From Candidatus Kaiserbacteria bacterium (GTDB lineage Bacteria > Patescibacteriota > Minisyncoccia > Phycocordibacterales > UBA918), in the NCBI GenBank assembly GCA_019634005.1, contig JAHQWD010000001.1, positions 1 through 43,774 of the forward strand: DNA of 43,774 nucleotides, read 5' to 3'. Below, in pieces: positions 4,907 through 39,069 of the stretch. Both the position numbers and the translations under genes were made by a program. The notes under the pieces are model-generated. The model did not search any database and was not told the origin of the DNA. It saw only the letters and a program-made list of their open reading frames with translations. How positions within the stretch are numbered: position 1 is the first letter of the stretch; every line of letters starts with the position of its first letter.

Positions 4907-5149
4907 ATGTCACGAGAATCATTAGTATTTGTCATTGGAATTGTACTCTTTTTGATACCTTTTTTGGGAGTACCGCAGGATGTAAAGGATATTGTTATTG
5001 TAGGAATGGGCATTATCGTCATAGTGCTTGGTATAGTGCTTCGCCGCGCAGCTTTCCTCCGTTCTATCGAGAACGGTAATGGTGAAAAAGAAGGAGAGAT
5101 GTTTACTGAATCAAAGATTCCAGAAGAGACTAAAGAGACAAGGATATGA
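4907..5149 (+). CDS. Hypothetical two-TM membrane protein
   Basis: 80 aa with two N-terminal hydrophobic helices and an acidic tail. TATACT lies 8 nt upstream and the stop overlaps the next start. Confidence 0.75.
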   Translation: MSRESLVFVIGIVLFLIPFLGVPQDVKDIVIVGMGIIVIVLGIVLRRAAFLRSIENGNGEKEGEMFTESKIPEETKETRI

Positions 5150-6423: not shown

Positions 6424-6583
6424 GGAACTGACACAAGGTTATCTTAATATACGAAAGTTAAAAGGACACGACACGCTCTATCGTGTCCGTGTTGGTAGGG
6501 TGTGCATTATTTACCGTGATGAGGGAGACATCACCATCGAATATGTGGGTATGCGCAATGAAAAAACATATCGTGGCTTTTAA
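6410..6583 (+). pseudogene. Truncated RelE/ParE-family toxin remnant
   Basis: IRKLKGHDTLYRVRVGRVCIIY...YVGMRNEKTY matches the C-terminal half of RelE-like toxins. The N-terminal helices are missing and no antitoxin gene is adjacent. Confidence 0.6.
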
Positions 6584-6610
6584 ATATAAAGTGTCTGCTA
6601 TAATTCACCT

Positions 6611-8296
6611 ATGAGTTTTGATCCTGATAAGATCACGTACTTTGCGAAAACTGATGCTCGTGGTCAGCAGAAGCCTTTTGGTATCAAAGCAAAGGATAGA
6701 CAGCGTCATGTCTACGTCATTGGTAAGACAGGAATGGGTAAGTCTACCTTGCTTGAGAATATGGCGGTGCAAGATATAAAGAACGGGGAAGGACTCGCTT
6801 TTATTGACCCTCATGGTTCTACCGCAGAAACACTTCTTGATTTCATTCCAGAAGAACGCGTAAAGGACGTATTATATTTCGCTCCATTTGATATGGAACA
6901 TCCAATATCCTTCAATATTATGGAGGATGTAGGGCCAGACAAACGACACCTCGTTGTATCTGGACTGATGTCTGTGTTTGAGAAAATCTGGGTGGATGCA
7001 TGGTCTGCACGTATGGCATACATTCTCCAGAATACGCTTATGGCACTTCTGGAGTATCCAGACTCTACGCTTCTTGGGGTAAACCGTATGCTCTCAGATA
7101 AAAAATATCGAGAGAAGGTGGTAGACAATGTCAAAGATCCTGGCGTGAAGTCTTTCTGGGTAGACGAGTTTGCAAAATACAATGAGCGATACATGCAAGA
7201 AGCAGGAGACGCGATTAAGAACAAGATCGGACAGTTTACCGCCAATCCAGTGATTCGAAATATTATTGGACAACCACACTCCAGTTTTGATATCCGTGAC
7301 ATCATGGACAACAAAAAGATCCTTATTATGAATCTCTCAAAGGGCCTGATTGGAGAGACGAATGCGAACCTTCTGGGGTCGATGCTCACCACACGTATCT
7401 ACCTTGCTGCAATGAGTCGTGCAGACCTTTCACCGCAGGAAATGAAAGAGATGCCAAACTTCTATTTCTATGTAGACGAGTTCCAGTCGTTTGCGAACTC
7501 TACATTTGCCAACATTCTCTCTGAGGCGCGTAAGTATAAGTTGAACCTCACTATCGCACATCAATATGTGGAGCAAATGGAAGAAGAGGTGCGGAATGCA
7601 GTATTTGGAAACGTAGGAACGGTCATTGCATTCCGTGTTGGTCCATTTGATGCAGAAGTATTGGAGGCAATCTTTGCGCCAGAGTTTACCGCAACGGACC
7701 TGGTGAATCTGGGGTTTGCACAAATATACCTCACGCTTATGATCGACGGTATTGGGTCACGTCCATTTTCTGCGGTAACTCTACCTCCAATTGAGGCGGG
7801 GCATACGTCATGCAAAGAGATGGTTATTCGATCGAGTCAAAAGAACTTTGGTTCTGAACGTACACAGGTTGAAGAGATGGTTAATGCGTTCCACGAACAG
7901 AATCGTACACCACCAAAGCCGCCAAAAGAAAAGAAAAGGCCAACACGGAAGCCAGAAGGAGGATTCCAGCCACCACTTCGGAAGAAGGAAGAAAAGGATG
8001 TCAATGATCTTCGTAATGTGTTGAAGATCATCACAAAGACGCCTGGCGGTGGACAGCAAAAGAAAGAAGCCCCAAAGCCACCAGCAAAAAAAACAGAAGA
8101 TCTGAAAGCGGCACTTGCGGGGGTGATGAAGGAGGCCCCAAAGCCTGAGCAGAAACACACTCCGCCTGCACAAAAACAGAAGGTGCCCCGACAGCAAAAG
8201 AAGCCAATACCAAAACAGAAAGAAGAGTCTGTGTCAGCAAAGAATCTTGAACGCATGATGCGAGTGACCACACAGGATAAGCCACCGATGACATAG
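6611..8296 (+). CDS. VirD4/TraD-like type IV coupling-protein family ATPase
   Basis: RHVYVIGKTGMGKS (Walker A), FIDPHG, FYFYVDEFQSF (Walker B), ILSEARKYKLNLTIAHQY, AVFGNVGT motifs, plus a low-complexity C-terminal tail. Confidence 0.85.
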   Translation: MSFDPDKITYFAKTDARGQQKPFGIKAKDRQRHVYVIGKTGMGKSTLLENMAVQDIKNGEGLAFIDPHGSTAETLLDFIPEERVKDVLYFAPFDMEHPISFNIMEDVGPDKRHLVVSGLMSVFEKIWVDAWSARMAYILQNTLMALLEYPDSTLLGVNRMLSDKKYREKVVDNVKDPGVKSFWVDEFAKYNERYMQEAGDAIKNKIGQFTANPVIRNIIGQPHSSFDIRDIMDNKKILIMNLSKGLIGETNANLLGSMLTTRIYLAAMSRADLSPQEMKEMPNFYFYVDEFQSFANSTFANILSEARKYKLNLTIAHQYVEQMEEEVRNAVFGNVGTVIAFRVGPFDAEVLEAIFAPEFTATDLVNLGFAQIYLTLMIDGIGSRPFSAVTLPPIEAGHTSCKEMVIRSSQKNFGSERTQVEEMVNAFHEQNRTPPKPPKEKKRPTRKPEGGFQPPLRKKEEKDVNDLRNVLKIITKTPGGGQQKKEAPKPPAKKTEDLKAALAGVMKEAPKPEQKHTPPAQKQKVPRQQKKPIPKQKEESVSAKNLERMMRVTTQDKPPMT

Positions 8297-8299
8297 CCT

Positions 8300-9298
8300 A
8301 TGCGACTGGTGGTGCTCTATGTTCTTTTGTGTGTTCCATCCGTGCTCTCTGCAGAAACGTTGGTTAATATCAACACCGCGTCAGCAGAAGAACTGGAGAC
8401 ACTTCCAGGTATCGGGAGTGCCTATGCAACACGTATCATTGAGTACAGGTCCGATGCACCGTTTCAGACTATTGAAGACATACAAAATGTAAGCGGGATA
8501 GGACCTGCAACATTTGCAAAAATTGAAGACCACATTACTGTCGATGGTGAGAAAGAGTCCGACACAAAAGAGACGACGACACCTTCAAAGAGTGTCCGTG
8601 TAAAAGAGACATACAATGAGGAGATAGTCGTTGATGCACCAGCGGTAACCTTCGTACATCAAGAGGTGTCATTTGATGTGTCTACGCATATGAGTGGCAG
8701 ACTTGTTCGGTATGCATGGAACTTTGGAGACCTATCATCTGGTGAAGGAAGGGCTCCCACACACCGTTTTGAGTACCCAGGAGAATATGTGGTAATTGTG
8801 GAAGGGAGGTATCAAGGAGAAGATTTCTCGGCACGCCATGAGATAGTGGTCCTTCCAGTTGCGTTTTCTATCACGCGTTCTCCTGAGGGAGACATACAGA
8901 TACACAATGATGCGTCGGAGGAAGTGGACATAAGTCACTTTATTCTCTCAGAGGTAGATGCAGTCGTTATTCCCAAGGGGACGACACTACTTCCGCACGC
9001 GACACTGACTGTTCCAAGAGAGAAGGTTGAAACGGGAGGAACCTATGGTATACCGAGACTCTATGATGCTATTGGAACACTGGTGGCAACATATGATCCT
9101 CAGTACGTTGCTCCAGAAAGCGATATAGTTCCTGTTGATGTTGAGAGCCAGCAAGCCTCAGCCATTGAGGCGGTTGAGGAGTCGGGAAGTAATCTTGCGT
9201 ACATAGGCCTTGCATCGGTGCTTGCCATAGGCATTCTCGGTGTCTATACCAGGCGAAGAGAATCCCCATATATTGAAGATATAGAGAAAAGCGTATAG
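8300..9298 (+). CDS. ComEA-like helix-hairpin-helix DNA-binding protein with PKD domain and C-terminal membrane anchor
   Basis: Signal peptide; VNINTASAEELETLPGIG and IQNVSGIGP HhH motifs; PKD signature YAWNFGD...THRFEYPGEY; C-terminal TM followed by RRR. Confidence 0.85.
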   Translation: MRLVVLYVLLCVPSVLSAETLVNINTASAEELETLPGIGSAYATRIIEYRSDAPFQTIEDIQNVSGIGPATFAKIEDHITVDGEKESDTKETTTPSKSVRVKETYNEEIVVDAPAVTFVHQEVSFDVSTHMSGRLVRYAWNFGDLSSGEGRAPTHRFEYPGEYVVIVEGRYQGEDFSARHEIVVLPVAFSITRSPEGDIQIHNDASEEVDISHFILSEVDAVVIPKGTTLLPHATLTVPREKVETGGTYGIPRLYDAIGTLVATYDPQYVAPESDIVPVDVESQQASAIEAVEESGSNLAYIGLASVLAIGILGVYTRRRESPYIEDIEKSV

Positions 9299-11377: not shown

Positions 11378-11851
11378 ATGGAGGGCATAGTGCCTAAAGA
11401 AATTTCTCTTGAAGAAGCAAAAGACCTGGGTTTTCAGGTTGGTTGCAAACGTATGGGCAATGGCGAGATTAGGGTTCGTCTGATGCGTGGTACAGAGCGC
11501 GGAAGCTCTGGCTACATTGCTACCGTTATGCCAGATGACGACTGCGGTTGGCAAAACAGCCATCACCACAAAGGTGTGCAGGAAACATACATCGTGCAGT
11601 CTGGCTGGATCGGATATGCAATCCTGATGCCGGACAATTCGGCAAAATTCTTTATTTATCGGGCAGGTCAAGTGTTCACCACGCAGGTCGGCGAAGTACA
11701 CAACGTGTATATGCCGTGCGGTGCTTTCATTCACACCGTGAAGCATGGCGACTGCTCACAACAGCATGACTGGGTCGGTTCGGAAGAACTCGACAAGCTG
11801 ACACAACATGTGGATGAGGAAGAACTCCACTTTCTTGCTTCCGAGCAATGA
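11378..11851 (+). CDS. Cupin-fold protein
   Basis: Two-motif metal-binding pattern QNSHHHKGVQETY ... GEVHNVYMP in a 157-aa beta-rich protein. Confidence 0.7.
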   Translation: MEGIVPKEISLEEAKDLGFQVGCKRMGNGEIRVRLMRGTERGSSGYIATVMPDDDCGWQNSHHHKGVQETYIVQSGWIGYAILMPDNSAKFFIYRAGQVFTTQVGEVHNVYMPCGAFIHTVKHGDCSQQHDWVGSEELDKLTQHVDEEELHFLASEQ

Positions 11852-11886
11852 AAAAAGGACGTGGCTTGCGAGCCGCGTCCATTTTT
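11851..11886. terminator. Bidirectional terminator
   Basis: AAAAAA-GGACGTGGCT-TGCG-AGCCGCGTCC-ATTTTT between convergent genes. Confidence 0.85.
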
Positions 11887-12982
11887 AATGTAATCCAATC
11901 TGTCGCTTCTTTTCGTCTGTACTTCGAAGGACATCTCGCTTTGTCATATACGTGGTGCGCACATCTTCAGGGAGTTCTTCCTTCTCCAAAGTGTGGGCCA
12001 ACACCTCTGCCCAGAAATGCACACGCGCTGTGTTGAGTTCCTTCAAATCCCCAGAGCTCTTCGGGAGTGTATTGGTGTAGTAGAGCATGAGTTCCGTAAG
12101 ACGATAAAGACGCATGAGCCAGAGCGCAGTTGACTCCTCCTCTGTTCGGTTATCTTTCACGTACTGTGTAAGAAGTTGAGCCAGTTCTGGGTTATACAGT
12201 GTCATGAAGTTAATGAATCGTGCCCAACCTTCGTATTTGTTTCCAAAACGAAGCGAAGAATGATCAAGAAGATAGACGGTGCCGTCTTTTACTCTGAAAT
12301 TATGTGGTACAAGATCCGTGTGTGTGAGGAACTGTCCATAGCGTTCAATAGTTGTCTTGTGTGAACTGAGCACCTCCGCCACTTGTTGGAGTAATGAGGT
12401 GTACTCAGGGAATGTTTTAAGAATGTCCCTTCTAAATCCATTGAAAGAGGTAAGATAGTCATCTGCATTTCTGGCCTCAAATGTTTTTTTGATAAGTCGT
12501 AAGTGACTGAACGTAGTCGCGCGAGCACCTTCCTGTGCCTTGAAAGCTGTCAGTGCTAACGTGAACTGTTCCTCAAGAGGACGTTCGATGAACATTGACG
12601 GCTGTTCAATATATTCCTGAATAAAGATGACGTACTCACTAGTCTTTTTAAAGAAGCACTCTTTAGGAGAAGCAAAGGTGCCATAGGCGAATTGTAATTC
12701 CTCAAGGACGCTGCGGCACAGTCTTTCGTGAAGTATCTCACGCATACCACCCTTGTCTCTGGTTACTTTGATCACGACACGAGTACCGCGGGTATTTTTC
12801 CCAAGGAGAATGAGTTTTGTACCACTCTCTGTAGTGACCGCGTGCATAAGATATCTCTCTCCATAGATATGCGGCTGCTCTGTATCAAGTGTGTATCCGA
12901 GTTTTTTAAGTAGGGGGGTGAAATATGCACATTCCTTCTCTCGGTATTGCTCCCAGTATGCTTTTTGTGTCACGGTGGTCAT
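11885..12982 (-). CDS. APH/choline-kinase-like phosphotransferase
   Basis: VVIK lysine, catalytic HTDLVPHN (HxDxxxxN) and YLLDH metal-binding motif. Start set at ATG 12982, which overlaps the upstream stop (ATGA). Confidence 0.75.
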   Translation of the reverse strand: MTTVTQKAYWEQYREKECAYFTPLLKKLGYTLDTEQPHIYGERYLMHAVTTESGTKLILLGKNTRGTRVVIKVTRDKGGMREILHERLCRSVLEELQFAYGTFASPKECFFKKTSEYVIFIQEYIEQPSMFIERPLEEQFTLALTAFKAQEGARATTFSHLRLIKKTFEARNADDYLTSFNGFRRDILKTFPEYTSLLQQVAEVLSSHKTTIERYGQFLTHTDLVPHNFRVKDGTVYLLDHSSLRFGNKYEGWARFINFMTLYNPELAQLLTQYVKDNRTEEESTALWLMRLYRLTELMLYYTNTLPKSSGDLKELNTARVHFWAEVLAHTLEKEELPEDVRTTYMTKRDVLRSTDEKKRQIGLH

Positions 12983-13485
12983 ACAAGTGATTCTAGATGT
13001 TTTTTCCAATCCTCCTCATACCGCTTGAATGCTTCAGCGGGGTATTCTTCAAAAGGGAGCACCTCGGGGCGAATAAGTGAGAGATTCGCGTATGAAATAT
13101 CTTTTGAAGAAGTCTGCTGCAGCGTACGGCCAAAAGAGGTGAGTGGAGCAGTGGTGTCAAATGGAAGAAAGACGTGTGGAATCCTTCGTAGTTTTGTTGC
13201 AAAGAATACAGGCACTTCCACCGAACGCCCATTTATTATATAGAGCATATCGTGTTTTCGCAGTTCCCGAAGGAGTGTTTTGAAAAAAGAGAAGAGACGC
13301 ATAACAATTGGTTTCCTCTTATCTACGCAGCAGGTTTCCACGTTCGAAAGTTCCTCGGGGAGATGGCCGTACAGTACAACGGTGACCTTGTGCTGGTCAC
13401 TAAGGCGTTTCGCAAGTTCCTTCACATATTGCGCTGTTTCTGCCGTATCTGGTGGATAGAGCGGGGTTACAATGAGTATTCGCAT
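12979..13485 (-). CDS. Glycosyltransferase GT4 N-terminal domain only, 168 aa
   Basis: MRILIVTPLYPPDTAETAQYVKELAKRL..HKVTVV resembles the N-terminus of the divergent GT at 13549; the C-terminal donor-binding domain is absent. Start at ATG 13485 with TG-C-TATACT 8 nt upstream. Confidence 0.65.
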   Translation of the reverse strand: MRILIVTPLYPPDTAETAQYVKELAKRLSDQHKVTVVLYGHLPEELSNVETCCVDKRKPIVMRLFSFFKTLLRELRKHDMLYIINGRSVEVPVFFATKLRRIPHVFLPFDTTAPLTSFGRTLQQTSSKDISYANLSLIRPEVLPFEEYPAEAFKRYEEDWKKHLESLV

Positions 13486-13548
13486 TGCTTTTGAGTATAG
13501 CACTTTGTAAGGCGGGTATACATATGAAGTTTCTGCTATCATAAACCA

Positions 13549-14670
13549 ATGCATATCCTTATAACGACGGGGATTTTTGAACCAGAATCTGGGGGTCCAG
13601 CAACATATACGCCTCGCATTGCCGAGAAGTTGGTTTCGGCGGGTCATACGGTGACAGTTGTCACGTATGCGGATAGGTCAGAATATGACTTCGATGGAGA
13701 CTATCCATTTCGCCTCATACGTGTTGTGAGAAAAAAGGGGAAGTTGCTCAATTACCTCCGCTTCCTTAAGGTAATCCTCCCCTATGTGAGAGAAGTGGAT
13801 TTTGTGTATTCATTAGACTGGCTTGCCGCAGGACTTCCGGTGGCGTTGGCAACAAAGATATATCGAAAGAAATACGTTGTTCGTGTCGGTGGGGGATATA
13901 TCTGGGAGAAATATCTTGAGGGGGGCAGTCTACCGATGTCACTCAAAGAGTTTTACCGTAGAGGACTACATCGAAAGTACCTTGTATTGTTCTCTCTGAT
14001 ACGCTTTGTGCTTCGTGGTGCGGCACATGTCATTTTTAATACAAAAGATCAGGCACGGTTGTTCGGTCCTGCGTACAAATTGAGAAAGAGTTCGGTATCA
14101 GTTATTGAAAACCCTGTGCTAGAGGTTGAGGAAGGAATTACTCGGACAGAGGCAACAAAGGAGATTATCTTTGCAGGGCGTCTCATTGTGATGAAAAATG
14201 TGGAGTCTCTCATTCTTGCATTTAAACGGGCGCAACTAAAAGGGTATACGCTGAGTATTATTGGTGACGGACCACGTAAAGAACACCTCCGCGAACTTAT
14301 TGCTAAACTTGGTCTAGAAGATGTTGTGCATCTTGAGGAGCCACTGCGGCAGAAGGATTTGTACGAACGCATAAAAAACTGTGCGTTTGTAGTGATTCCA
14401 AGTTGGACAGATATTTCACCGAATCAGGCGTATGAACTCTTGGCATATAAGATTCCGTTTGTGATTACCAAAGAAAATTACCTCAGTATCAGAGATCAGT
14501 TTCCTGTTACCATTGACCCGCACAGCGTGCAGGATATGATGCAGAAACTCCAGAAAGTGACAAAACCAGGGGCGTATAGATCATTCGTCTCTGCTTGCGC
14601 TGCTCTTCAGTATGTGCACACTTGGGACGATGTGCTTGAAGAACATCTCGCTGTTTTTGAGACACTATGA
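13549..14670 (+). CDS. Glycosyltransferase family 4
   Basis: ITTGIFEPESGGPATY, IFAGRLI..KN, IGDGP, VIPSWTDISPNQAYE motifs. Confidence 0.9.
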   Translation: MHILITTGIFEPESGGPATYTPRIAEKLVSAGHTVTVVTYADRSEYDFDGDYPFRLIRVVRKKGKLLNYLRFLKVILPYVREVDFVYSLDWLAAGLPVALATKIYRKKYVVRVGGGYIWEKYLEGGSLPMSLKEFYRRGLHRKYLVLFSLIRFVLRGAAHVIFNTKDQARLFGPAYKLRKSSVSVIENPVLEVEEGITRTEATKEIIFAGRLIVMKNVESLILAFKRAQLKGYTLSIIGDGPRKEHLRELIAKLGLEDVVHLEEPLRQKDLYERIKNCAFVVIPSWTDISPNQAYELLAYKIPFVITKENYLSIRDQFPVTIDPHSVQDMMQKLQKVTKPGAYRSFVSACAALQYVHTWDDVLEEHLAVFETL

Positions 14671-19043: not shown

Positions 19044-20201
19044 ATGTCTACATCTATTATCACCTTCGCTAATCTTGGAGAGAAAAAGAATAACCGTACG
19101 GCAGGTACGGTGCCAGTGATTGATAAATTTGCGAAGGAGAATGACCTCATTCAGGTTATCTGCCAGATTAATAAGAACTATTGGTTTAAAAATACGGTCT
19201 CTGCGACACCGACGGTAATACGATGGTGCATTCGTATTGTTGAAGAGTTGACCCGTATTCCGCTCCGCGGGGTACACCTCAAAGCACTCGATTTCTTTGC
19301 ACAGTTTAAACTTAAAAAGGCTGACCTCTATATCTTTCATACAGGAGAGTCGATGTCGCGCACTATCAAAGCTGCACGCAAGAAAGGAGGTATTTCAATT
19401 AGTCTGGCAACAATTTCTGACCCAGTAAAAAACAAAGAGATTGAAGAGGAAGAAATGAAACTGTTGGGCATTGAGGGATTTGAAACAGAATCTGAGGATG
19501 CAGTAAGACGATGTCCAGATTACAATAAGTTTGATTACGTCATCGCGTACTCTGAGTTTGTGCGTGATACCTACATAGAGAAAGGGTACCCAGCAGACCA
19601 TATCTTTACCGCGTATTCTGATACACCCCTTCCCGCCAAAGTAGAGCGTGACTGGAATGGAACATTTAAGTTGGTCTATGTAGCGTACACCAGTCCACGA
19701 AAAGGACTCCACTATCTCCTTGATGCGTGGAAAGAATTAAACCTTCCTGACGCAGAGTTGCTTCTTGTCGGGAAGTACAATCGTACTCCCGAAGAGCTCA
19801 AGGAGCGGTATGATGCAATCATTGAAAGTGATCCAAGTATCACATGGGTCGGGCGAGTCAAAGACCCAACGCCATATTTTCATGAATCAACGGCATTTGT
19901 GCTCCCGTCACTCATTGAGGGAAATCCATATGCGGTTATGGAGGCAATGGGACATGGTCTTCCTGCCATTGTGACCCCGCCAGCGCAGAGTCTCGTGGAG
20001 GACGGAAAGAGTGGGTATGTTGTACCGATACGAGATGTCGAAGCTCTCAAAGAGAAGATTCTCTATCTATATAATAATCGGGATGTTGCCAAAGCAATGG
20101 GTGAGGAGGGTCGCAAGACTATGGAAAATAAACAGGAATATGGGGAGGTAGTATATGAGATCTGTCAGGACATCTTGAAGCGTGAAGGACGAATACAATG
20201 A
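19044..20201 (+). CDS. Glycosyltransferase family 4
   Basis: RKGLHYLLDAW, FVLPSLIEGNPYAVMEAMGHGLP, DGKSGYVVP motifs. Start taken at MSTS (19044); the track start 19014 is less likely. Confidence 0.88.
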   Translation: MSTSIITFANLGEKKNNRTAGTVPVIDKFAKENDLIQVICQINKNYWFKNTVSATPTVIRWCIRIVEELTRIPLRGVHLKALDFFAQFKLKKADLYIFHTGESMSRTIKAARKKGGISISLATISDPVKNKEIEEEEMKLLGIEGFETESEDAVRRCPDYNKFDYVIAYSEFVRDTYIEKGYPADHIFTAYSDTPLPAKVERDWNGTFKLVYVAYTSPRKGLHYLLDAWKELNLPDAELLLVGKYNRTPEELKERYDAIIESDPSITWVGRVKDPTPYFHESTAFVLPSLIEGNPYAVMEAMGHGLPAIVTPPAQSLVEDGKSGYVVPIRDVEALKEKILYLYNNRDVAKAMGEEGRKTMENKQEYGEVVYEICQDILKREGRIQ

Positions 20202-20872
20202 GTATCTACGTAGAGTTTATGGGGTTATCAGGAGCGGGGAAGACAACGCTCGTTGATACGCTGTGTACACGTCTCAAAGAGCAAGATGTTTCTGTAGTGA
20301 GCAAAGACACCTTTTTTGTAAAGCCAAAGAGAGGACTTTCTAAATTGTGGTGGACAGTGACGCATCTTCACTATCTTGATAGAGAGACATTTCGTTCGCT
20401 ACTTATGCTTGGAAAGACACGCCGTCTTGGCTTTCGGAGACTACTTGCAAGTATTCATGAGCACACCAAATTGTGGCACCAACTTGCATATCGTTCGCAA
20501 TATAAAGTAATCCTCTGGGACGGTATTTTTATTCAGCGATTTGTCCATCTTGTTCTCGATGGTGTGTTTGATGTTCAAAAGACATTCGACTTCATCGTTT
20601 CTAGACTTCCAAAGGAAACTCTGGTGGTGTACATAGATGTTCCATTAGATACGGCACTTGAACGAAGACATGAACGAGAACCACGTCTCGACAGTGTGTC
20701 TGAGGTGAAGAAAGAAAAGGAAATGAAGTTTCTCACAGAGACACAACAAGTACTCCAAGAGGCTTGTACAGAACTTGAAAAAAGAAATGTACAGGTTGTG
20801 CGAATTGATGGCACCAAAACACCAGAAGAGAATGCGGATATACTGGTTAATGAAATCACTGAACGCCTATGA
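20198..20872 (+). CDS. P-loop nucleoside-monophosphate/thymidylate-kinase-like protein
   Basis: VEFMGLSGAGKTT Walker A, ILWDG, VVYIDVPLDTALERR..RE lid, RIDGTKTPEE C-terminal motif. Confidence 0.75.
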   Translation: MSIYVEFMGLSGAGKTTLVDTLCTRLKEQDVSVVSKDTFFVKPKRGLSKLWWTVTHLHYLDRETFRSLLMLGKTRRLGFRRLLASIHEHTKLWHQLAYRSQYKVILWDGIFIQRFVHLVLDGVFDVQKTFDFIVSRLPKETLVVYIDVPLDTALERRHEREPRLDSVSEVKKEKEMKFLTETQQVLQEACTELEKRNVQVVRIDGTKTPEENADILVNEITERL

Positions 20873-21954
20873 AAATTCTCTACGCAACACACGCTCGGCT
20901 TCCGACCGAGAAAGCATATGGTGCACAGATTGTGCAGACCTGCGCGGCACTTTCTGAACATGCAGAGGTGACACTCCTTGTCCCAAACAGAAACGGTGCA
21001 ACACCAGAACGTATTCGTGATGCCTATGGAATCTCCAATACATTCTCTATCCATGTGGTAGATACTCTAGACTGGGTGCAGTTTGGGAGGATAGGTTTCC
21101 TTCTTTCAGAATGGTTCTTTGCACGAGAGGTGCGAAGGATAGTGCAGAAAGAAAAGTACGATGTTGTATATAGTCGGGATGCACTCCCACTTCTTGGACT
21201 ACCAAGTGATGTTCGTACGGTATACGAGGCGCATACGCCACGGTGGAATGTGTTTATACGACGCGTCGCACGTTCTGTTGATGTGTTTGTTTCCATAACC
21301 AAAGGACTAGCAGACTGGTATACAGAGAAAGGAGTGACAAAGGATATTGCTGTAATTCCCGATGCAGTTGACCTCGCACGCTTTGAAAACATTCCAGATA
21401 AGGAGGTGTGCCGAAGAGAACTTGATATCCCAGAAGATATATTTATGGTGAGTTACATCGGACATCTCTATCCAGAAAAGGGTGCCCATATTCTTGCTGC
21501 TGCGGTGGGGCATCTTCCTGAAGATATTACGTGTTTCTTTGTCGGGGGACTTGAGCAAAACGTGGAAGACTTCAAAAAACACTATACAAGCAAACAGATT
21601 GTATACGTGCCACATCAGCCGCATGAAAGAGTGCCATACTATATGTGTGCATCTGATGTACTCGTGGTGCCAAACAGCGGAAAGCATGAGACGTCAGCAC
21701 GCTTCACATCACCGATGAAACTCTTTGAGTACATGGCGTCAGGTCGGCCGATTGTTGCGTCAGATGTTCCTGCGCTTCGAGAGGTTCTATCTGAGGAAAT
21801 GGCAACCTTCTTTGAGGCAGATAATCCAGAGTCACTTGCAGAGGCAATCATTTCTGCAAAGAATGATGGTGTAGAGAAGGCAGAGAAAGCAAAAGAAGCA
21901 GTGCAGAACTATACGTGGCAAAAACGTGCAGAACATATTATGAAGATTCTATGA
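20869..21954 (+). CDS. Glycosyltransferase family 4
   Basis: IPDAVD, YIGHLYPEKG, FTSPMKLFEYMASGRPIVASD motifs. Confidence 0.92.
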   Translation: MKILYATHARLPTEKAYGAQIVQTCAALSEHAEVTLLVPNRNGATPERIRDAYGISNTFSIHVVDTLDWVQFGRIGFLLSEWFFAREVRRIVQKEKYDVVYSRDALPLLGLPSDVRTVYEAHTPRWNVFIRRVARSVDVFVSITKGLADWYTEKGVTKDIAVIPDAVDLARFENIPDKEVCRRELDIPEDIFMVSYIGHLYPEKGAHILAAAVGHLPEDITCFFVGGLEQNVEDFKKHYTSKQIVYVPHQPHERVPYYMCASDVLVVPNSGKHETSARFTSPMKLFEYMASGRPIVASDVPALREVLSEEMATFFEADNPESLAEAIISAKNDGVEKAEKAKEAVQNYTWQKRAEHIMKIL

Positions 21955-23744
21955 CCCAGATACAGTGTGGAGATAAAACATTTGATGTTACAGAGACAAT
22001 TGCAACGGGCATGACCGCAACGGTGTACCGAACTACATGTGGGCATGTGCTGAAGCAATTTCATAAAAGTCCTTCACGGGGACATATCGACAGGGAGTAC
22101 TTCTGGCTTACAAAACTTGCTGATGAAAACATTGCTCCGAAACCAGTCGCCTATGATGAGTCTCGAAGGGTTATTCTCATGACAGATTGTGGTAACCCTG
22201 TCATGGGAGACACTCTGCCTTCAGATTGGAGAGAGCAGATGGAGCGTATTCTTTCTGTCTTCAAAGAACATAATTGTAGTCATAACGATCTCTCAGAACG
22301 GGAGGTGCTCGTTCTTGAAGAAAAATTGTATGTCATAGATTTTGGCTTTGCGTCACTCGGTGAAGATATGTCCTGTGGTGGGAAGTTTGCGGATGATGTG
22401 AAGGGAAGACTTTTTGATGATACGCACATCATTTCACTTTTGGAATTTCTCCTTCTTCCGCAGAAACAGGGGACAGAACTTCACACATTTGTCCTGTGGG
22501 AGAAAGGAGAACAGGCCGCTGTTGAAGAGAAGATACAAGAGAAGTTTCGTGTGATTCAGGCAATCACATACAATCCAAAGACACTGAAGATGTTAGGAAG
22601 AGACCGTGTTGAGGTCTTAACAAAGTTCTATCACGGGAGAATGTCGCATCACGGGGAGAAGGGCATGAAGCCATTTGTTGTGTATGTCGTGTTGGATGAA
22701 AATCCAGTCTACGAGGAACGTACCAATGCGTTCAATGGCACAACGCAGATGGTGAATATAAACACATTCGATAACCTTCAAGAACTTCGTGCGGGGCGCA
22801 CCAGTTTCATTCACGGGTCGGATAACACACAGGAGTCATATGAGAACTTAAAGACACTCTCCCTCTACACAGAGAATATTCCTGTCTGCTACTGGGAACA
22901 CTGGCGTCCGAAGTTTACGTCGTTTGAACATTTCTTTGAAACACTAAATACAACCAACCTTTCATATGTGGTACTTCGTAACTTTGATACTTTGCCTGAG
23001 GATACAGACTACGGGAAAAAGAATGATATCGACATGCTCGTAGAGGACTACTACCTTTTTAAACGAATAACTGGTGCGCTGAGTTACAAACACAAACGGC
23101 CGAAGGCGCACAAGCGCGGTGGTCCTGCGGTGGAATATGGAGGGTATAAAGTGGCAGGAAAGGTTTCTATTGCAGGTAGAGAGGTATCAGTTGATGTACG
23201 CTTTGTCGGAGACAACTACTATCCAAGGGGGTGGGAAGAGGAGGTGCTTAAGAGTCGAAGAGCGTACAAAGGATTCTTTGTGCCAGATGAGGAACATTTC
23301 TTCTATACGCTCTTGTATCATACCTTGGTACACAAGCGGAACATGTCTGATGTGTATCGAAAACAACTGTCTCAGATGGCAAAAGAGAGAAATCTTTGTG
23401 AGGGGACCCTTTCTGGTACAGAAGCATGGACTATTCTCGATGCATTTATGGAAGAGAAAGGTTATACGTATGTACGTCCAGATGAGCTGACACTTCCGTT
23501 TACCGCGCGTGATCGGGCAGGGATTAGTATCTCAGAAGATATCCAGAAGGCACGTCAGTTTCGTGCATCAGGGCGCTTTGTAGAGGCGAGTCATCTCCTT
23601 CGACAGATTCTGAGCGATGAGCCACAGAATGTAGAAGCACGCATGCTCTTGTGTGCAGTACGCACGAGACTCTTCATCGAGGAGGAACATCGTCTGCCAC
23701 TAAAGCGATTCCTGTATCGTATTAAGGAGTTACTTCGTTTGTAA
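21951..23744 (+). CDS. Multidomain protein, 597 aa: kinase-like + NDK-like + nucleotidyltransferase-like + TPR
   Basis: Kinase motifs ATGMTATVY, VLK, HNDL, IDFG; central IHGSDN; YVVLRNF...DIDMLV; C-terminal helical repeat. Start at ATG 21951 overlaps the upstream TGA. Confidence 0.7.
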   Translation: MTQIQCGDKTFDVTETIATGMTATVYRTTCGHVLKQFHKSPSRGHIDREYFWLTKLADENIAPKPVAYDESRRVILMTDCGNPVMGDTLPSDWREQMERILSVFKEHNCSHNDLSEREVLVLEEKLYVIDFGFASLGEDMSCGGKFADDVKGRLFDDTHIISLLEFLLLPQKQGTELHTFVLWEKGEQAAVEEKIQEKFRVIQAITYNPKTLKMLGRDRVEVLTKFYHGRMSHHGEKGMKPFVVYVVLDENPVYEERTNAFNGTTQMVNINTFDNLQELRAGRTSFIHGSDNTQESYENLKTLSLYTENIPVCYWEHWRPKFTSFEHFFETLNTTNLSYVVLRNFDTLPEDTDYGKKNDIDMLVEDYYLFKRITGALSYKHKRPKAHKRGGPAVEYGGYKVAGKVSIAGREVSVDVRFVGDNYYPRGWEEEVLKSRRAYKGFFVPDEEHFFYTLLYHTLVHKRNMSDVYRKQLSQMAKERNLCEGTLSGTEAWTILDAFMEEKGYTYVRPDELTLPFTARDRAGISISEDIQKARQFRASGRFVEASHLLRQILSDEPQNVEARMLLCAVRTRLFIEEEHRLPLKRFLYRIKELLRL

Positions 23745-23745
23745 T

Positions 23746-24846
23746 ATGAAAGAACAAAAACACATTCTCTATGCAACTGCTGCACGACTTTCTCGGAGAA
23801 AGGCGCATGTGGTAAGCATTCTTAATATGTGTGACTCGCTTCACAAGCGAGGACATGTCGTCACGCTCGCAGTTCCAAAAGAAGAAGAAGTCGAGGAGGT
23901 GGTTGCACAATACGACATTTCTCCTGAGGTGAATATAGTCCAAGTGCCCACAATTGATATCTCATGGCTTTCTGCAAAGGTTCGGGAGTGGGTACGGTTG
24001 TGGTCTTTCGGAAAAGCAGTACGCATGTTGTCTGAAGAACACGACGTTGTTCTCACAAGAGACTGGGCACTTACGTTATATGTAGAGGACTACATCTTCC
24101 TTCACGGGAAGCCAGATTTCTCTCGGAGGAATTGGAAGAAGAGATTGGAGAATGCACAGGGGATTGTGGTGGTGAACAGTATCATAAAGCGAATACTTGT
24201 AGACGCGGGGATTGAGGAAGGAAAAATCCACGTAGCGCCAAACGGTGTCGATATCGCGTCCTTTTCTTTGGACATGAACGCACAAGAGATGCGGGGGGAG
24301 TTAGGACTTCCAGAAGATGCAAAGATTGTTATGTACACAGGGAGTTTCTATCTCCATGACTGGAAAGGGGTACAAGTGCTTCTTGAGGCTGCAGCACTGC
24401 TTCCAGAGTATGCCTTTGTTATGGTGGGTGGCGGAACGGCAGAAATTGAAGGAATTAAAAAAGAATACAAAGGTGACAATATTATCTTGCGAGAAAAACA
24501 GCCACACAAGGATATTCCACGATATCTACAGGCCGCCGATATTCTTGTCATTCCAAATACCGATAATGCTAAAGAGGGGAGCCACTATACGTCGCCGATT
24601 AAACTCTTCGAGTACATGGCATCAGGTCGGCCGATTGTTGCGTCCAAGCTTCCTTCGATACAGGAGATTGCAACGGAGGATATAGTGCAGTTTGTAAAGA
24701 CGGGAGATGCGGAGGATCTTGCACGTGGTATAACAGAGGTACTCAGCGACGAAAATACTGCAGCGACTTTAGCGCAAAGAGCGAGGGAAGAAGTGCAGAA
24801 CTACACATGGGACGCACGAGCAAGAGTTGTTGAAAACATACTATGA
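23746..24846 (+). CDS. Glycosyltransferase family 4 (paralogue of 20869..21954)
   Basis: APNGVD, YTGSFY..KG, YTSPIKLFEYMASGRPIVAS motifs. Confidence 0.92.
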   Translation: MKEQKHILYATAARLSRRKAHVVSILNMCDSLHKRGHVVTLAVPKEEEVEEVVAQYDISPEVNIVQVPTIDISWLSAKVREWVRLWSFGKAVRMLSEEHDVVLTRDWALTLYVEDYIFLHGKPDFSRRNWKKRLENAQGIVVVNSIIKRILVDAGIEEGKIHVAPNGVDIASFSLDMNAQEMRGELGLPEDAKIVMYTGSFYLHDWKGVQVLLEAAALLPEYAFVMVGGGTAEIEGIKKEYKGDNIILREKQPHKDIPRYLQAADILVIPNTDNAKEGSHYTSPIKLFEYMASGRPIVASKLPSIQEIATEDIVQFVKTGDAEDLARGITEVLSDENTAATLAQRAREEVQNYTWDARARVVENIL

Positions 24847-25460
24847 CACGACCGTGGGACACATTTTTTAAAGAACGCATAACACGAATCCTTAAAGAAA
24901 AGGAAACGGTTATTGATATTGGAGGAGGTCTTCGTGTCGCAAAGGATAAAAACAACCGATATGACAAAAAGAGAGCATGGGCACTGCCGCTTCTTGAGGG
25001 CGTAGATTATAAAGTGCTCGATCCTGTCCCAGACTATAACCCTGATATTGTCGGAGACATCCACAACCTTCCGTTTGAGGACGATTCTGTAGATGCGCTC
25101 CTCTGTATCGCCGTACTAGAGCATGTTGAGAATCCAATACAGGCAGCGAAAGAGATGTACCGTGTCTTAAAACCGGGGGGATATCTCTTTGTCTATGTAC
25201 CATTCTTATACTACTACCACGCGGAAAAGGGATACTATGGAGATTATTGGCGCTTCACGAAGGACACACTCGACGTGCTCTTTAGAGATTTTTCCGAGAA
25301 GGAGATAGTTTCTGTACGTGGCGCACTTGAGACATGGGTGAAGCTGGGTCCTCTCGGACGAAGTGCATTTATATGTGGTCTTGCTCATATGCTGGACAAG
25401 CTCACAGGCAAGATACAGAGTGCACAGACAAGCGGGTATAATGTCTTCTTGGTGAAATAG
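24843..25460 (+). CDS. Class I SAM-dependent methyltransferase
   Basis: VIDIGGG motif I, GDIHNLPFEDDSVD, VLEHV, RVLKPGG, DYWRFT motifs. Confidence 0.9.
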   Translation: MTRPWDTFFKERITRILKEKETVIDIGGGLRVAKDKNNRYDKKRAWALPLLEGVDYKVLDPVPDYNPDIVGDIHNLPFEDDSVDALLCIAVLEHVENPIQAAKEMYRVLKPGGYLFVYVPFLYYYHAEKGYYGDYWRFTKDTLDVLFRDFSEKEIVSVRGALETWVKLGPLGRSAFICGLAHMLDKLTGKIQSAQTSGYNVFLVK

Positions 25461-25461
25461 T

Positions 25462-26346
25462 ATGCAGAAAGAACTCCTTACAAAATTTCAAGAAGCAGAA
25501 CGACGCGCACAGTCGTGGTATGAATTTTCTGGTACGCTTGGTGCAAAACTACGCCGCATCCTTTTCTTGAAAGGAAAATACCTTGTTTTTACACTGTATC
25601 GACTTGGACTTAAAAAAGAAGGCACCGCAAAGTTGTTTTTTGGAAAGCATATGCGTCTCCCGCTTAGAGACCCGAATGCACTCCGCATGTATTTCATGGG
25701 CACGCTCGGTGCGCCGCGGGAACGTGCCCTCACTGCCTTTTTGATCCGAACTCTTAAAAAAGATGACGTCTTTTATGACATCGGTGCAAACTTTGGTTTC
25801 TATGCGTTCCTTGCGGAAACATTGGCGGGGGAAGTACACGCCTTTGAGCCAAACGAGCGTATTTACGCGTATCTAAAGAAGAATGCGGCAAAAAATATTG
25901 AGACAATACAAATGGCAGTGAGTAACGAGGTGGGTATGGTGACCTTCTTTGATTCCATAGAGGACAGTAGTTCAAGTAGTCTCATTCAGTCAGAAGATAG
26001 GGAAGCGGAAGAATATGCATCAAACGAAGTAAAAGCAACCACCCTCGACACCTACACCAAAGACCACACCCCACCAACCATCCTCAAGATAGACGTGGAA
26101 GGCGCAGAACGTCTCGTACTGGAAGGAGGAAAAGAAACCCTCACTACACACAAACCAACCATCATTCTTGAAGTCTGGGGGAAAGAACGAGGGAAGAAAC
26201 ACCACAAAGAAGCAGTCTCTCTCCTTCACACCATGGGATACGTACCGCACCACATTACCGAAGACGGAACGTTGGAGCGGTTGGGAGAGGTGGATTTTGA
26301 TGGAATTACTCGGTACGAGAATATTGTGTTTACACGGCCCTCTTAA
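25462..26346 (+). CDS. FkbM-family methyltransferase
   Basis: FYDIGANFGFY, VHAFEPN, TTLD, LKIDVEGAE motifs. Confidence 0.92.
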   Translation: MQKELLTKFQEAERRAQSWYEFSGTLGAKLRRILFLKGKYLVFTLYRLGLKKEGTAKLFFGKHMRLPLRDPNALRMYFMGTLGAPRERALTAFLIRTLKKDDVFYDIGANFGFYAFLAETLAGEVHAFEPNERIYAYLKKNAAKNIETIQMAVSNEVGMVTFFDSIEDSSSSSLIQSEDREAEEYASNEVKATTLDTYTKDHTPPTILKIDVEGAERLVLEGGKETLTTHKPTIILEVWGKERGKKHHKEAVSLLHTMGYVPHHITEDGTLERLGEVDFDGITRYENIVFTRPS

Positions 26347-29016: not shown

Positions 29017-30948
29017 ATGAAAGACCTCTCAAAATGGATTACCTACGCAGGAGTATTTGTACTCCCGTTTTTGGTACTTATTGTCGCAGACTCTCTCTTT
29101 TTCCCATATATCACGGGGAAGGGGTTCTTCTTTAGAATCGTTGTTGAAATCATAACCGCCGCATGGATTGTCTACGCGCTCTATGAGTCGCGCGTGCGCC
29201 CGAAGGTGTCATACATAGCATGGGGCTTTATTGCGCTTGTGGTCATTATGTTTTTTGCGGATCTCTTCGGACAGTACGCGCCGAAGAGTTTCTGGAGTAA
29301 TTTCGAGCGAATGGACGGCTATGTCACACTCGTGCATCTCTTCCTCTATTTTGTGGTTGTCAGCAGTGTTCTCACAACAGAGAAACTATGGTACCGATTC
29401 CTCACAATCTCTGTTGGAGTAGCATCAACACTGGCATTGTATTCTTTTGCTCAGCTTTCTGGTGAGATAGAGATTAATCAAGGTGGGTGGCGTCTGGATG
29501 GAACACTTGGGAATGCAGCATACATGGCCGTATACCAACTGTTCCATATAGCATTTGCACTCTTGTTATTCTTTAGGACACATACTAAGTGGTTGCGGTA
29601 TCTTTACGGAGGGTTGGCCGTAGTATTTACGTTCTTGCTGGTGCAGACAGCGACTCGGGGAACCATCCTTGGATTAGCAGGAGGGATACTGCTCGCCGTA
29701 CTCTACGCACTCGTTAGGGAACAAAAATATCGAAAGGTTGCAGGAGGGATTCTCTTGGGGTGGGTGATACTGGTTGCTGGATTTATCGTGTTTAAAGATG
29801 CTTCGGTTATTCAAGAGAACCAATATCTCTCTCGGGTTGCAAACATCACCCTCGACGAAGGAAGTGTCCGCTTTGCATTGTGGGATATTGCGCTTGAAGG
29901 GGTGAAGGACAGGCCACTCCTTGGATGGGGACAGGAAAACTTTAATTACGTCTTTAACACGTATTACACCGCAGAGATTTACAATGCGGAGCAGTGGTAT
30001 GACCGAGTGCATAACATTGTCTTCGACTGGCTGATCGCAGGAGGAATCCTTGGAGCACTCGCATATTTCTCTCTTCTCTTCTTCACACTGTACTATCTGT
30101 TTCGACAGAGAGACATGTTTACGCTTCCAGAACAGAGTATTCTCTTCGGTCTTCTCGGAGCCTATATGTTCCATAACCTCTTTGTATTTGATAATACGGT
30201 TAGTTACTTCCTCTACATATCAGTCATTGCGCTGGTGCATAGTCGTGTTGGGAAGCCAGTATGGCAAGAGATAAGCGTATCGCGAGAGGTCACAGGACGT
30301 GTCATTGCGCCTGCGCTACTCATCGTTACTGCTCTTGTAGTTTACAGTGTCAATGTGCCACCGATGAAGGCAGGGGCGGCGCTTATTGATTCTTTCTCAG
30401 CATCATCGAGTGAGAAACATAGAGCGATTTTTACGGAAGCACTTTCATATGAGACATTTGGAAACCAAGAGATTCGTGAACAGATGATTCAAGTATTTCC
30501 GTCAATCTACCAGTCACAGAGTATCTCCGCTGAGGAAAAAAGAGCATTTGCACTTTTCATTGATGAAGAGATTAAAAATCAGGTTATGGAGAAACCGAGT
30601 GATGCTCGTGTGCATGCACTTGCGGCACCATTCTACAGAATAACGCGTGTACCAGATCAGGCACTCCAACATCTTGCAATCGCTATAGAACTTTCACCTG
30701 AGAAACAGCAATTCTATATCGATGCAGGGCTTGCGTATCTGCAAAAAGACAATCTTGCTGAGGCACTTGCTGTAGCGAAACATGCGTATGAACTAGAGTC
30801 TAAAAATAAGACCGCTCGTTTGTATTATGGGCTGATGTTGATTCTCTCAGGAGATCGGGAGGGGTATAGAGAGATCTCCGAGGGGTATGAGGAAGTTTTT
30901 GATGAACACACTTTCATCAAAGATGCCTTGGCGACGCAGGGCTGGTAG
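29017..30948 (+). CDS. O-antigen ligase / O-oligosaccharyltransferase-like membrane protein with C-terminal TPRs
   Basis: Many TM helices, TLGN, TATRG, RPLLGWGQENF, DRVHNIVFDWL..GGILG (Wzy_C HN motif), and a helical TPR-like tail. Confidence 0.88.
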   Translation: MKDLSKWITYAGVFVLPFLVLIVADSLFFPYITGKGFFFRIVVEIITAAWIVYALYESRVRPKVSYIAWGFIALVVIMFFADLFGQYAPKSFWSNFERMDGYVTLVHLFLYFVVVSSVLTTEKLWYRFLTISVGVASTLALYSFAQLSGEIEINQGGWRLDGTLGNAAYMAVYQLFHIAFALLLFFRTHTKWLRYLYGGLAVVFTFLLVQTATRGTILGLAGGILLAVLYALVREQKYRKVAGGILLGWVILVAGFIVFKDASVIQENQYLSRVANITLDEGSVRFALWDIALEGVKDRPLLGWGQENFNYVFNTYYTAEIYNAEQWYDRVHNIVFDWLIAGGILGALAYFSLLFFTLYYLFRQRDMFTLPEQSILFGLLGAYMFHNLFVFDNTVSYFLYISVIALVHSRVGKPVWQEISVSREVTGRVIAPALLIVTALVVYSVNVPPMKAGAALIDSFSASSSEKHRAIFTEALSYETFGNQEIREQMIQVFPSIYQSQSISAEEKRAFALFIDEEIKNQVMEKPSDARVHALAAPFYRITRVPDQALQHLAIAIELSPEKQQFYIDAGLAYLQKDNLAEALAVAKHAYELESKNKTARLYYGLMLILSGDREGYREISEGYEEVFDEHTFIKDALATQGW

Positions 30949-38265: not shown

Positions 38266-39069
38266 ATGGAGGTCATTACACTCAATGGACGGGAGTATAT
38301 TAAAGCGAGTAAGGCGGCTCGTGAAGTTGGGTATACCTCGGACTATGTAGGGCAGCTTTGTCGAAGTGGAGCAATTACTGCAGAACGTGTTGGAAGGAAT
38401 TGGTATGTAGATAGAGAAGAGCTTCGAGAACATAAGACGGATAAAAAAAGAAACGCACGAAGTAAGGCTCGTGAACATGTACGGAGAATTGTAAGAGAGG
38501 AGGCTACAGCGACGGAACATGCTTCAATAGAAAAGCAAGAAGAAAAGTTTGAGCCTAGGTATCTGGCACACGCTTCAGATACTCGGTATGTCTCAGATAG
38601 GAGTCCCTTGATTCCAGAGATCAAAAAAACCCCTAAAAATAAGGATTTTTCAGTACATATTGTAAAGGATGCACCCGAAATAAAAATAAAAAAAATCACT
38701 TCCTCTGAAGCTGTGTCTTCAAAAGAAAAGCCCACAAAAGTTCCTCTAAAGATTTCTTCTGAGAGGAATACAAAGAAGAGTCCCAGCAAGATGAGAAGTG
38801 TTCGACAAGATAATTCTCCTCCATCCGTACAGGGGGAAGATCTTTCTTGGGACAAATCTCTGCATGATGTACAGGAAGGTTCTCCAACCAGCAGTCCGAT
38901 CAGAAGTGGGGTAGTCTTGCTCATAACCATGTTCATTGCATTTCTGGTTCTTGGTATGAGCTCTGAATCAAGTGTCCAAATCAGCACTTCAACAGGTTCT
39001 GTTTTAAATCAGTTTACCTCAGGCTACACTCTAGATTTTAGCTTAATCATCTCTAATATAGCGCTCTAA
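38266..39069 (+). CDS. Excisionase-type HTH protein with charged linker and C-terminal TM helix
   Basis: YIKASKAAREVGYTSDYVGQLCRSGAI.AERVGRNWYVD HTH/wing; TM GVVLLITMFIAFLVLGM; promoter TTGAAC-N18-TATACT upstream. Confidence 0.8.
   Translation: MEVITLNGREYIKASKAAREVGYTSDYVGQLCRSGAITAERVGRNWYVDREELREHKTDKKRNARSKAREHVRRIVREEATATEHASIEKQEEKFEPRYLAHASDTRYVSDRSPLIPEIKKTPKNKDFSVHIVKDAPEIKIKKITSSEAVSSKEKPTKVPLKISSERNTKKSPSKMRSVRQDNSPPSVQGEDLSWDKSLHDVQEGSPTSSPIRSGVVLLITMFIAFLVLGMSSESSVQISTSTGSVLNQFTSGYTLDFSLIISNIAL

Follow-up and report, generated by a model that had tools for sequence, protein, structure and literature searches.

What does a protein that joins a kinase to two further nucleotide-handling folds do in the middle of a polysaccharide locus? 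This question was raised by the first 43,774 nucleotides of contig JAHQWD010000001.1 (assembly GCA_019634005.1, Candidatus Kaiserbacteria bacterium), which were analyzed as a whole and are referred to here as the window. A gene on the forward strand at 21951-23744, translationally coupled between two family 4 glycosyltransferase (GT4) genes within a polysaccharide locus of ~21 kb, encoded a 597-aa protein that had been predicted, from the DNA letters alone, to be a fusion of four domains. It very probably consisted of a protein-kinase-like domain, a nucleoside diphosphate kinase (NDK)-fold domain, a nucleotidyltransferase (NTase)-like domain and a tetratricopeptide repeat (TPR)-like tail. We propose, at close to an even chance, that it is a cytoplasmic nucleotide-using enzyme that modifies the glycan of its locus by phosphate elaboration.

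Gene and Domain Architecture

The open reading frame (ORF) was counted from an ATG. With an alternative GTG start at 21915 the protein would be 12 aa longer; the ATG was preferred because it overlapped the stop codon of the upstream GT4 gene (ATGA) and because the closest homologue began at the same residue. The downstream GT4 gene began 2 nt past the stop codon. The motif coordinates given below were fixed by script on this ORF.

21951-23744, forward strand: whole gene with four modules (homologues and AlphaFold model)
21951-22460, forward strand: module 1, small RIO/Bud32/WaaP-type protein-kinase-like domain, aa 1-170 (Pfam, Foldseek)
22008-22028, forward strand: GMTATVY, kinase module
22047-22055, forward strand: VLK (K35), kinase module
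22089-22097, forward strand: DRE (E49), kinase module
22281-22304, forward strand: HNDLSERE (H111, D113, E118), kinase catalytic loop
22335-22346, forward strand: IDFG (D130), kinase module
22470-22916, forward strand: module 2, NDK-fold domain, aa 174-322 (Foldseek, hhalign, Pfam on family segments)
22809-22838, forward strand: IHGSDNTQES (H288; His288 codon at 22812-22814), NDK-like module
22917-23516, forward strand: module 3, Pol-beta-type NTase-like domain with helical subdomain, aa 323-522 (fold matches, conservation)
22965-22985, forward strand: YVVLRNF, NTase-like module
23022-23042, forward strand: NDIDMLV (D359, D361), NTase-like module
23529-23741, forward strand: module 4, TPR-like tail, aa 527-597 (weak Pfam TPR, model helices)

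All motifs named in the original prediction were present where it had placed them, apart from YVVLRNF, which lay slightly upstream of the expected ~23022. They were not chance four-residue matches, since H288 and R280 were 100% conserved and D359, D361, and D415 were 99% conserved over 191 diverse members of the family described below. Conservation over these members was also 100% at Y339, Y423, H457, and K462, and 99% at W183, Y227, E295, R343, N344, and D421.

The AlphaFold2 model of the full-length protein, built on a 36-sequence alignment, had a mean predicted local distance difference test (pLDDT) of 92.1 and a predicted template modelling (pTM) score of 0.88. A core-only model spanning aa 168-534 had a pLDDT of 88. 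Foldseek searches with the models returned kinase and NDK folds and, at moderate strength, an NTase fold. Pfam and NCBIfam scans of the whole protein saw only the kinase and a weak TPR signal and had no model for the NDK-like and NTase-like pair, which is called the core below. The tail contained four model helices (527-539, 543-556, 561-577, and 579-596; DSSP), forming one TPR-like helix pair and, at the C-terminus, a basic amphipathic helix. Its Pfam matches were below threshold (TPR_19, E 0.0012, 19.5 bits against a cut-off of 25; TPR_14, E 0.007, 17.4 bits against 23.5), which together with the helices lent weak support to the predicted TPR-like end. Strong TPR arrays were found at one end in relatives of the protein.

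The NDK-Like Module

The 40 best PDB matches of the core model in Foldseek were all NDKs, the top one being 5x00_A (E 2.8e-4, TM score 0.66 on the target, probability 1.0). Among the viral predicted structures of BFVD, the core model also matched an NDK-like protein of a phage. In a PDB sequence search, a profile of 25 diverse NDK-like segments matched only the NDK domain of NME9 (E 1.1), with His on His. Profile comparison by hhalign gave a probability of 58% (E 1e-4) against E. coli Ndk (NC_000913) and of 71% (E 3.8e-5, 114 columns) against a five-sequence NDK alignment, in which E. coli Ndk was the only one of the five sequences verified from a record. When the 25 segments were scanned one by one, NDK was the top Pfam family, but only 2 of the 25 matched it (best E 1.8e-4).

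His288 fell on the NDK catalytic His (His117/118) in three independent alignments, and the call of an NDK-like domain with an HGSD motif of the phospho-His type was thus upheld. The hhalign register, in E. coli numbering, placed H288 on His117, Y227 on Tyr51, R257 on Arg87 and G263 on Gly91; R280 was offset from NDK Arg105 by 3-4 residues, in an uncertain register. Further conserved residues of the module were Y227, K237, D249, R257, N269, R280, and E295. Because the NME9 profile match, the two hhalign comparisons and the Pfam segment scan agreed, the domain was placed in the NDK superfamily, as a divergent member that keeps the nucleophile His and stands outside the canonical NDK family. It resembled Ndk/NME (PF00334) in its fold, its HGSD-type motif, the equivalents of the Tyr52/Arg88/Gly91 region and an acidic residue after the His. 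However, identity in structural alignments was ~11-17%, the loop before the His was shortened, and the domain was joined to an NTase-like domain and encoded in glycan loci rather than by a housekeeping gene. No housekeeping ndk gene was found in any examined family locus.

The NTase-Like Module

Two fold matches, both from searches with the two-domain core model, concerned this module. The NTase-like protein 5uvd stood at rank 41 of the PDB matches (probability 0.97, TM score 0.37), and the catalytic subunit of a viral poly(A) polymerase, which has the Pol-beta NTase fold, matched with a probability of 0.99 over 211 columns. In the model, the strand YVVLRN was followed by a loop of ~15 residues and then by D359-I-D361-M at the start of strand 360-364, and a third near-invariant Asp, D415, lay within strand 410-418 (DSSP). 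The conserved residues comprised Y339-VVL-R343-N344, D359-I-D361, D415, R417, D421, H457, H461, and K462. Given the two fold matches, the YVVLRN/DID pattern and the position of D415 on a later strand, a Pol-beta-type NTase fold is likely, though not proven. The DxD signature of the original prediction was borne out and joined by a third Asp, and the fold that it implied stood at moderate strength only.

A PDB sequence search with the NTase-like domain gave no match. Among 24 diverse segments, none matched Pfam LicD (PF04991) at E ≤ 10, and two matched NTP_transf_5 (PF14907) weakly, the best at E 0.014. This family, itself uncharacterised, was the only NTase family with a sequence signal and had a similar strand-loop-DIDLLV pattern, but the signal of module 3 was far under the family threshold.

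A basic loop, KHKRPKAHKRGGPAVEYGG, was inserted in the NTase-like domain (23091-23144, forward strand; aa ~381-398). This loop was a conserved feature of the kinase-first subfamily, lacking in every other core protein, and it was modelled with low confidence (pLDDT <50 in the core-only model).

The Kinase Module and Its Partner-Kinase Family

The kinase fold that had been predicted was recovered by comparison of the whole model with the PDB, in which Foldseek matched RIO2, RIO1, TTK, PRPK (Bud32), and Src (probability 1.0, 136-180 aligned columns) over the first ~140-180 residues. Pfam RIO1 (PF01163) matched just over its cut-off (E 3.6e-5, 23.9 bits against 22), at profile positions 52-149 of 187 only, and the NCBIfam Bud32 and RIO models matched weakly, far under their cut-offs. 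K35, E49, H111/D113, and D130 corresponded to the beta3 Lys, the alphaC Glu, the HxD motif and the DFG Asp, all of which were present. The module resembled RIO/Bud32 and WaaP/KdkA (PF01163, PF06293) in its small fold that ends soon after DFG, and its 'DLSE' loop was as in RIO. The signatures specific to RIO kinases are probably lacking. It also differed from RIO/Bud32/WaaP in having Glu118 in place of the metal-liganding Asn of the catalytic loop, and the gene was not associated with ribosome or KEOPS genes.

A hidden Markov model (HMM) built solely from small stand-alone kinases encoded beside cores also detected the N-terminal domain of the 597-aa protein and the C-terminal kinases of fusions of ~620 aa. 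In 87 loci, 18 partner kinases were fused (7 N-terminally and 11 C-terminally) and 17 were adjacent to a core. H111, D113, and D130 were present in 35 of the 35 aligned partner kinases and E49 in 33. The catalytic loop read HRDxxxxN in 28 and HNDLSExE in the 7 N-terminally fused ones. The Asn-to-Glu change noted originally was thus real and specific to that subfamily; three homologues had Ala at this position. The fused kinase of one relative (P0053) matched the Kdo/WaaP family. One kinase family is therefore the recurrent partner of the core, as kinase-core and core-kinase fusions, as adjacent genes and among three separate genes.

Distribution and Domain Arrangements of the Core Family

Of the homologues returned by a word-indexed search, 22 were full-length, with identities of 41-69%, and one was a shorter fragment. 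The same search found about a dozen proteins similar only over aa ~170-520, which stood alone (357-446 aa) or before methyltransferases. With a core profile, 2,568 clusters (50% identity) were recovered, of which 1,138 scored E ≤ 1e-30. The NDK-like and NTase-like pair is thus an autonomous and widespread core that has no Pfam model. Among species genomes, the carriers were Patescibacteria, Firmicutes, Actinobacteria, Proteobacteria, Bacteroidota, and one archaeal metagenome-assembled genome (MAG) of Nitrosopumilus; the nearest relative was encoded by a MAG of Candidatus Paceibacterota (62% identity), which makes an origin of the window in that lineage probable. Matches in giant viruses, found in BFVD, spanned both middle domains with 428-458 aligned columns:

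A0A481Z0W0: core match of Mimivirus LCMiAC01
A0A1V0SAX2: core match of Catovirus
A0A5K0UAL1: core match of Yasminevirus

The Catovirus and Yasminevirus proteins carried a 'glycosyltransferase' annotation. From these two-domain matches and the two annotations, we propose that the core family may extend into viral glycosylation machinery.

The 192 family proteins comprised 66 cores alone, 59 plain core-kinase fusions (64 when those with extra regions are included), 23 kinase-core fusions and ~35 core-methyltransferase proteins with further extensions. In a 2,142-aa protein of Ectopseudomonas chengduensis, the order was core, methyltransferase, unassigned region, WbsX glycosyltransferase and family 2 glycosyltransferase (GT2). 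Separated domains, for which a search of other loci had been suggested, were found as three consecutive genes, one per enzymatic module, in two Lachnospiraceae loci (L063, 6629-8639, and L065, 6647-8645), adjoining a flippase, a GT2, a sulfatase-family protein and sugar-nucleotide genes:

First split gene: NDK-like protein, 157 aa
Second split gene: kinase, 269 aa (Pfam Pkinase, E 1e-8)
Third split gene: NTase-like protein, 222 aa

The NTase-like domain also occurred alone (206-240 aa) in five loci (L042, L060, L061, L069, and L071) of Bacteroidales, Lachnospiraceae and Bacilli MAGs. In L069 and L071, it followed wzm-wzt, and a 506-aa ORF 1.9 kb downstream had a weak NDK-like signal (E 6e-5). 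No NDK-like partner gene was detected near the lone NTase-like gene in the other three loci.

PDB sequence searches with the whole protein and with each middle domain gave nothing significant, the names of core cluster members in the source databases were uninformative on function, and no paper on an NDK-fold module in glycan assembly was found in the literature. No characterised example was thus found in these three kinds of source, which agreed with the original view that the architecture was not a characterised one.

Genomic Context

The locus contained an epimerase gene, about a dozen GT4 genes, a P-loop kinase-like gene, two methyltransferase genes, and genes for a Wzx-type flippase and a Wzy_C/TPR protein. 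It was flanked by Mur ligase genes (MurD- and MurC-type), murB, secA, obg, and gatB. Apart from the epimerase gene, no recognisable sugar-nucleotide synthesis gene was found in it. The nearest genes of the same string were as follows:

20869-21954, forward strand: upstream GT4 glycosyltransferase, translationally coupled
23746-24846, forward strand: downstream GT4 glycosyltransferase
24843-25460, forward strand: class I methyltransferase
25462-26346, forward strand: FkbM-type methyltransferase

Homologues of the 597-aa protein were also located in polysaccharide loci, and the recurrent neighbours over the family loci were GT2s, epimerases, the partner kinase, flippases, and ABC-2 transporter components. 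The genes of two core-methyltransferase proteins (P0029 and P0035) followed wzm-wzt and overlapped the end of wzt, whose product had a Wzt_C cap-binding module. This slot is that of WbdD-type chain terminators. In the P0035 locus, a toxin-antitoxin pair of the MNT/HEPN type (NTP_transf_2 and HepT-like; L002 1232-1859) lay between wzm and wzt.

One gene upstream of the ORF at 21951-23744, the P-loop kinase-like gene (20198-20872, forward strand) encoded 224 aa with weak matches to Thymidylate_kin, AAA_33, and dNK; its product could be a second nucleotide-handling enzyme of the same modification pathway. The Wzy_C membrane protein (29017-30948, forward strand; 643 aa, O-antigen ligase/polymerase-type) had a weak, sub-cut-off TPR-like signal at its C-terminus (E 9.5e-4), which echoes the TPR-like tail of the 597-aa protein. 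The two downstream methyltransferases were considered as equivalents of the fused type, but an HMM of the fused methyltransferases recognised neither of them, and no equivalence is therefore claimed.

Proposed Function of the 597-Amino-Acid Protein

Cores without a kinase, the fusions of the core to glycosyltransferases, methyltransferases and TPR, and the wzm-wzt slot of two relatives argue for action on the glycan itself rather than activation of a precursor. A role directed at the glycan is therefore probable, and phosphate elaboration is the form of it that we favor. The particular two-step chemistry set out here is a good deal more doubtful. The kinase would use ATP to phosphorylate a sugar hydroxyl on a lipid-linked repeat unit or on the nascent glycan, as WbdD, WaaP, and KdkA do, and the core would then spend a second nucleoside triphosphate (NTP) to elaborate the sugar phosphate. 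D359, D361, and D415 of the NTase-like site would bind Mg-NTP, and His288 would be covalently phosphorylated or nucleotidylated in an intermediate step, in the manner of the NDK ping-pong reaction, in which a phosphate oxygen is the acceptor. This reaction would yield a phosphate bearing a substituent, such as a diphosphate or a decoration of the phosphodiester type. In relatives, the fused methyltransferase may methylate this substituted phosphate, a step that might fall here to one of the two methyltransferases encoded downstream. The enzyme may be held at the membrane or at an assembly complex by its helical tail and basic C-terminal helix. Given the Wzx/Wzy-type genes of the locus, a repeat unit is a more likely target than the chain end.

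The closest known systems, none of which shares more than some of the features, include WbdD of E. coli O9a and K. pneumoniae O3 and ORF6 of the O7 locus, in which a protein-kinase-like sugar kinase is likewise encoded in a glycan locus and multi-module proteins have helical, coiled-coil or TPR-like ends. In the two relatives noted above, the likeness to WbdD extends to the slot after wzm-wzt (Wzt_C) and to the methyltransferase they carry. Published work describes methyltransferase-kinase terminators whose kinases are cryptic and which contain TPR-like bundles (PMC11231755; PMC3482155), and in the terminator-polymerase of K. pneumoniae O7 a kinase that goes unrecognised in sequence searches comes after the methyltransferase (PMC11231755). 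The layout of that protein is resembled by the 2,142-aa protein of E. chengduensis. However, WbdD and O7 ORF6 themselves have no NDK-like or NTase-like modules, and the 597-aa protein differs from WbdD in lacking a fused methyltransferase and a long coiled coil and in lying in a locus of the Wzx/Wzy type. A region of ~330 aa after the methyltransferase of two relatives (P0035 and P0032; 'DCIPxNL...YFDAEW') was considered as a cryptic kinase. It matched no Pfam kinase at E ≤ 1, and the PDB search with P0035 returned no WbdD chain; the candidate stays at the level of a motif, for which K. pneumoniae O7 ORF6 would be a precedent.

Several observations weigh against phosphate elaboration by the kinase and core together. 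The core was not strictly dependent on a kinase, because 66 of the 192 core proteins (about a third) had no fused kinase and 52 of the 87 loci had no kinase of the partner family nearby. WbdD and O7 ORF6 form a methyl phosphate without a core, which leaves the contribution of the core unexplained. The NTase assignment was based on modest fold scores, and the near-invariant R343-N344 of YVVLRN sits where an hG[GS] motif would be expected. The NDK-like segment of the 597-aa protein matched no Pfam family at E ≤ 10; its domain had no equivalent of Asn115, and Lys12 lay outside the region aligned by hhalign. The chain-terminator role suggested by the two relatives is not simply transferable, because the locus has Wzx/Wzy-type genes and neither wzm/wzt nor any ABC-2 transporter was found in it.

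We further suggest, as a rather doubtful possibility, that the core defines a previously unrecognised class of enzymes that modify surface polysaccharides through a phospho- or nucleotidyl-His and are served by a dedicated kinase. The decoration, one to which no enzyme has so far been linked, might be, for example, a sugar diphosphate, a substituted nucleotide-activated phosphate, or a cyclic phosphate. Such a class would span bacteria, including those of the candidate phyla radiation (CPR), archaea, and giant viruses, and this extension is put forward as tentatively as the class itself.

Alternative Explanations

The original prediction had seen in the protein a single-chain assembly line in which a small substrate is phosphorylated, NTP is regenerated and the substrate is then activated or passed on to the glycan. 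In its explicit form, the kinase would make a sugar- or alcohol-phosphate, the NTase-like module would convert it to a nucleoside diphosphate (NDP)-linked donor for the glycosyltransferases, and the NDK-like module would re-phosphorylate the NDP. A fusion of kinase and nucleotidyltransferase, FKP, is an established route of NDP-sugar salvage (PMC11982464). All three modules are nucleotide-handling folds, and in a locus with a single epimerase gene and no other recognisable gene of sugar-nucleotide synthesis, salvage could benefit a reduced genome. HldE is a further kinase-nucleotidyltransferase fusion toward NDP-sugars. However, FKP and HldE, although alike in combining the two activities in a single chain, use other folds for both (a GHMP or ribokinase-type kinase and a Rossmann-like NTase) and have no NDK-like module and no glycosyltransferase or TPR fusion. 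Known sugar-1-phosphate nucleotidyltransferases have PF00483 or cytidylyltransferase folds, not that of Pol-beta. Lys12 and Asn115, which matter for the activity of NDP kinases, had no aligned equivalents, and regeneration of NTP on the spot is not known from other fusions of this kind. The same features that argue for action on the glycan, namely the many cores without a kinase, the fusions to GT2, WbsX, methyltransferase, and TPR and the two relatives in the terminator slot after wzm-wzt, disfavor the assembly line. None of the tests lent it support, and we consider it unlikely.

Less probable still is a kinase that acts separately from a phosphotransferase of the LicD/FKRP type that would pass a phospho-alcohol from a CDP-type donor to the glycan, the NDK-like domain being non-catalytic and serving nucleotide binding or oligomerisation. 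Degenerate NDK domains do occur in the eukaryotic NME7-9, and three of the loci described above had lone NTase-like genes and no detectable NDK-like gene (L042, L060, and L061). LicD, FKTN/FKRP, and CpsC are established examples of enzymes with an NTase fold that decorate glycans through phosphodiesters (PMC6965139; PMC11666461); module 3 has, like them, a DxD-type acidic motif and would share their Pol-beta-like NTase fold and its use in glycan decoration. Its motif, YVVLRN...DIDhLV, is nevertheless not the LicD motif, and the lack of a Pfam LicD match at E ≤ 10 among the 24 segments also speaks against this explanation. The conservation of His288 and Arg280 at 100% and of Glu295 at 99% over the 191 members is hard to square with an inert scaffold.

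A function outside glycan chemistry, as a regulatory protein Ser/Thr kinase or as a phage-defence or conflict protein, is very improbable. Homologues were labelled 'predicted Ser/Thr protein kinase' or 'RIO1 family regulatory kinase/ATPase', and the kinase fold matched RIO and eukaryotic protein kinases; those labels, however, cover the kinase part only, and the genomic context was consistently that of polysaccharide assembly. For a defence role, PADLOC gave only a trivial kinase-type match and no meaningful one, and tblastn of a stand-alone core against plasmid and phage collections returned no matches.

Other Features of the Window

Outside the genes discussed above, the glycosyltransferase locus was interrupted at 11378-13647 by three ORFs without a Pfam match. 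Upstream of the locus, the interval 5146-9298 encoded a DUF4015 putative glycosyl hydrolase, a weakly TraG/VirD4-like coupling ATPase, and a protein with ComEA-like HHH and PKD domains. Near the end of the window, two consecutive ORFs shared the N-terminal motif 'EVGYTSDY(I/V)..L.R'. The first had no Pfam match, and the second ran off the end of the window. The G+C content fell to 0.40-0.42 across about 36-40 kb.

1282-1356: tRNA-Ile(GAT)
11378-13647: three ORFs, one of 157 aa on the forward strand and two of 374 and 222 aa on the reverse strand, opposite to that of the locus
38266-39069, forward strand: first ORF with the shared N-terminal motif
39449-43774, forward strand: second ORF with the shared N-terminal motif, at least 1,442 aa

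Implications

In surface glycans, caps and side groups that are based on phosphate govern chain length, export recognition, charge, and antigenicity. To our knowledge, few types of enzyme are known for such phosphate groups, namely WbdD-type kinases and transferases of the LicD/FKRP and TagF types. The proposal is directly testable, because culturable carriers exist, among them Paenibacillus contaminans, Cohnella soli, Ectopseudomonas chengduensis DSM 26382, Caldimonas manganoxidans ATCC BAA-369, and Oerskovia turbata. If active, the core family would provide the first case of an NDK fold at work in glycan assembly. If the proposal is true, thousands of proteins now annotated as 'hypothetical' or 'Ser/Thr kinase', including those of CPR bacteria and giant viruses, would also gain a function.

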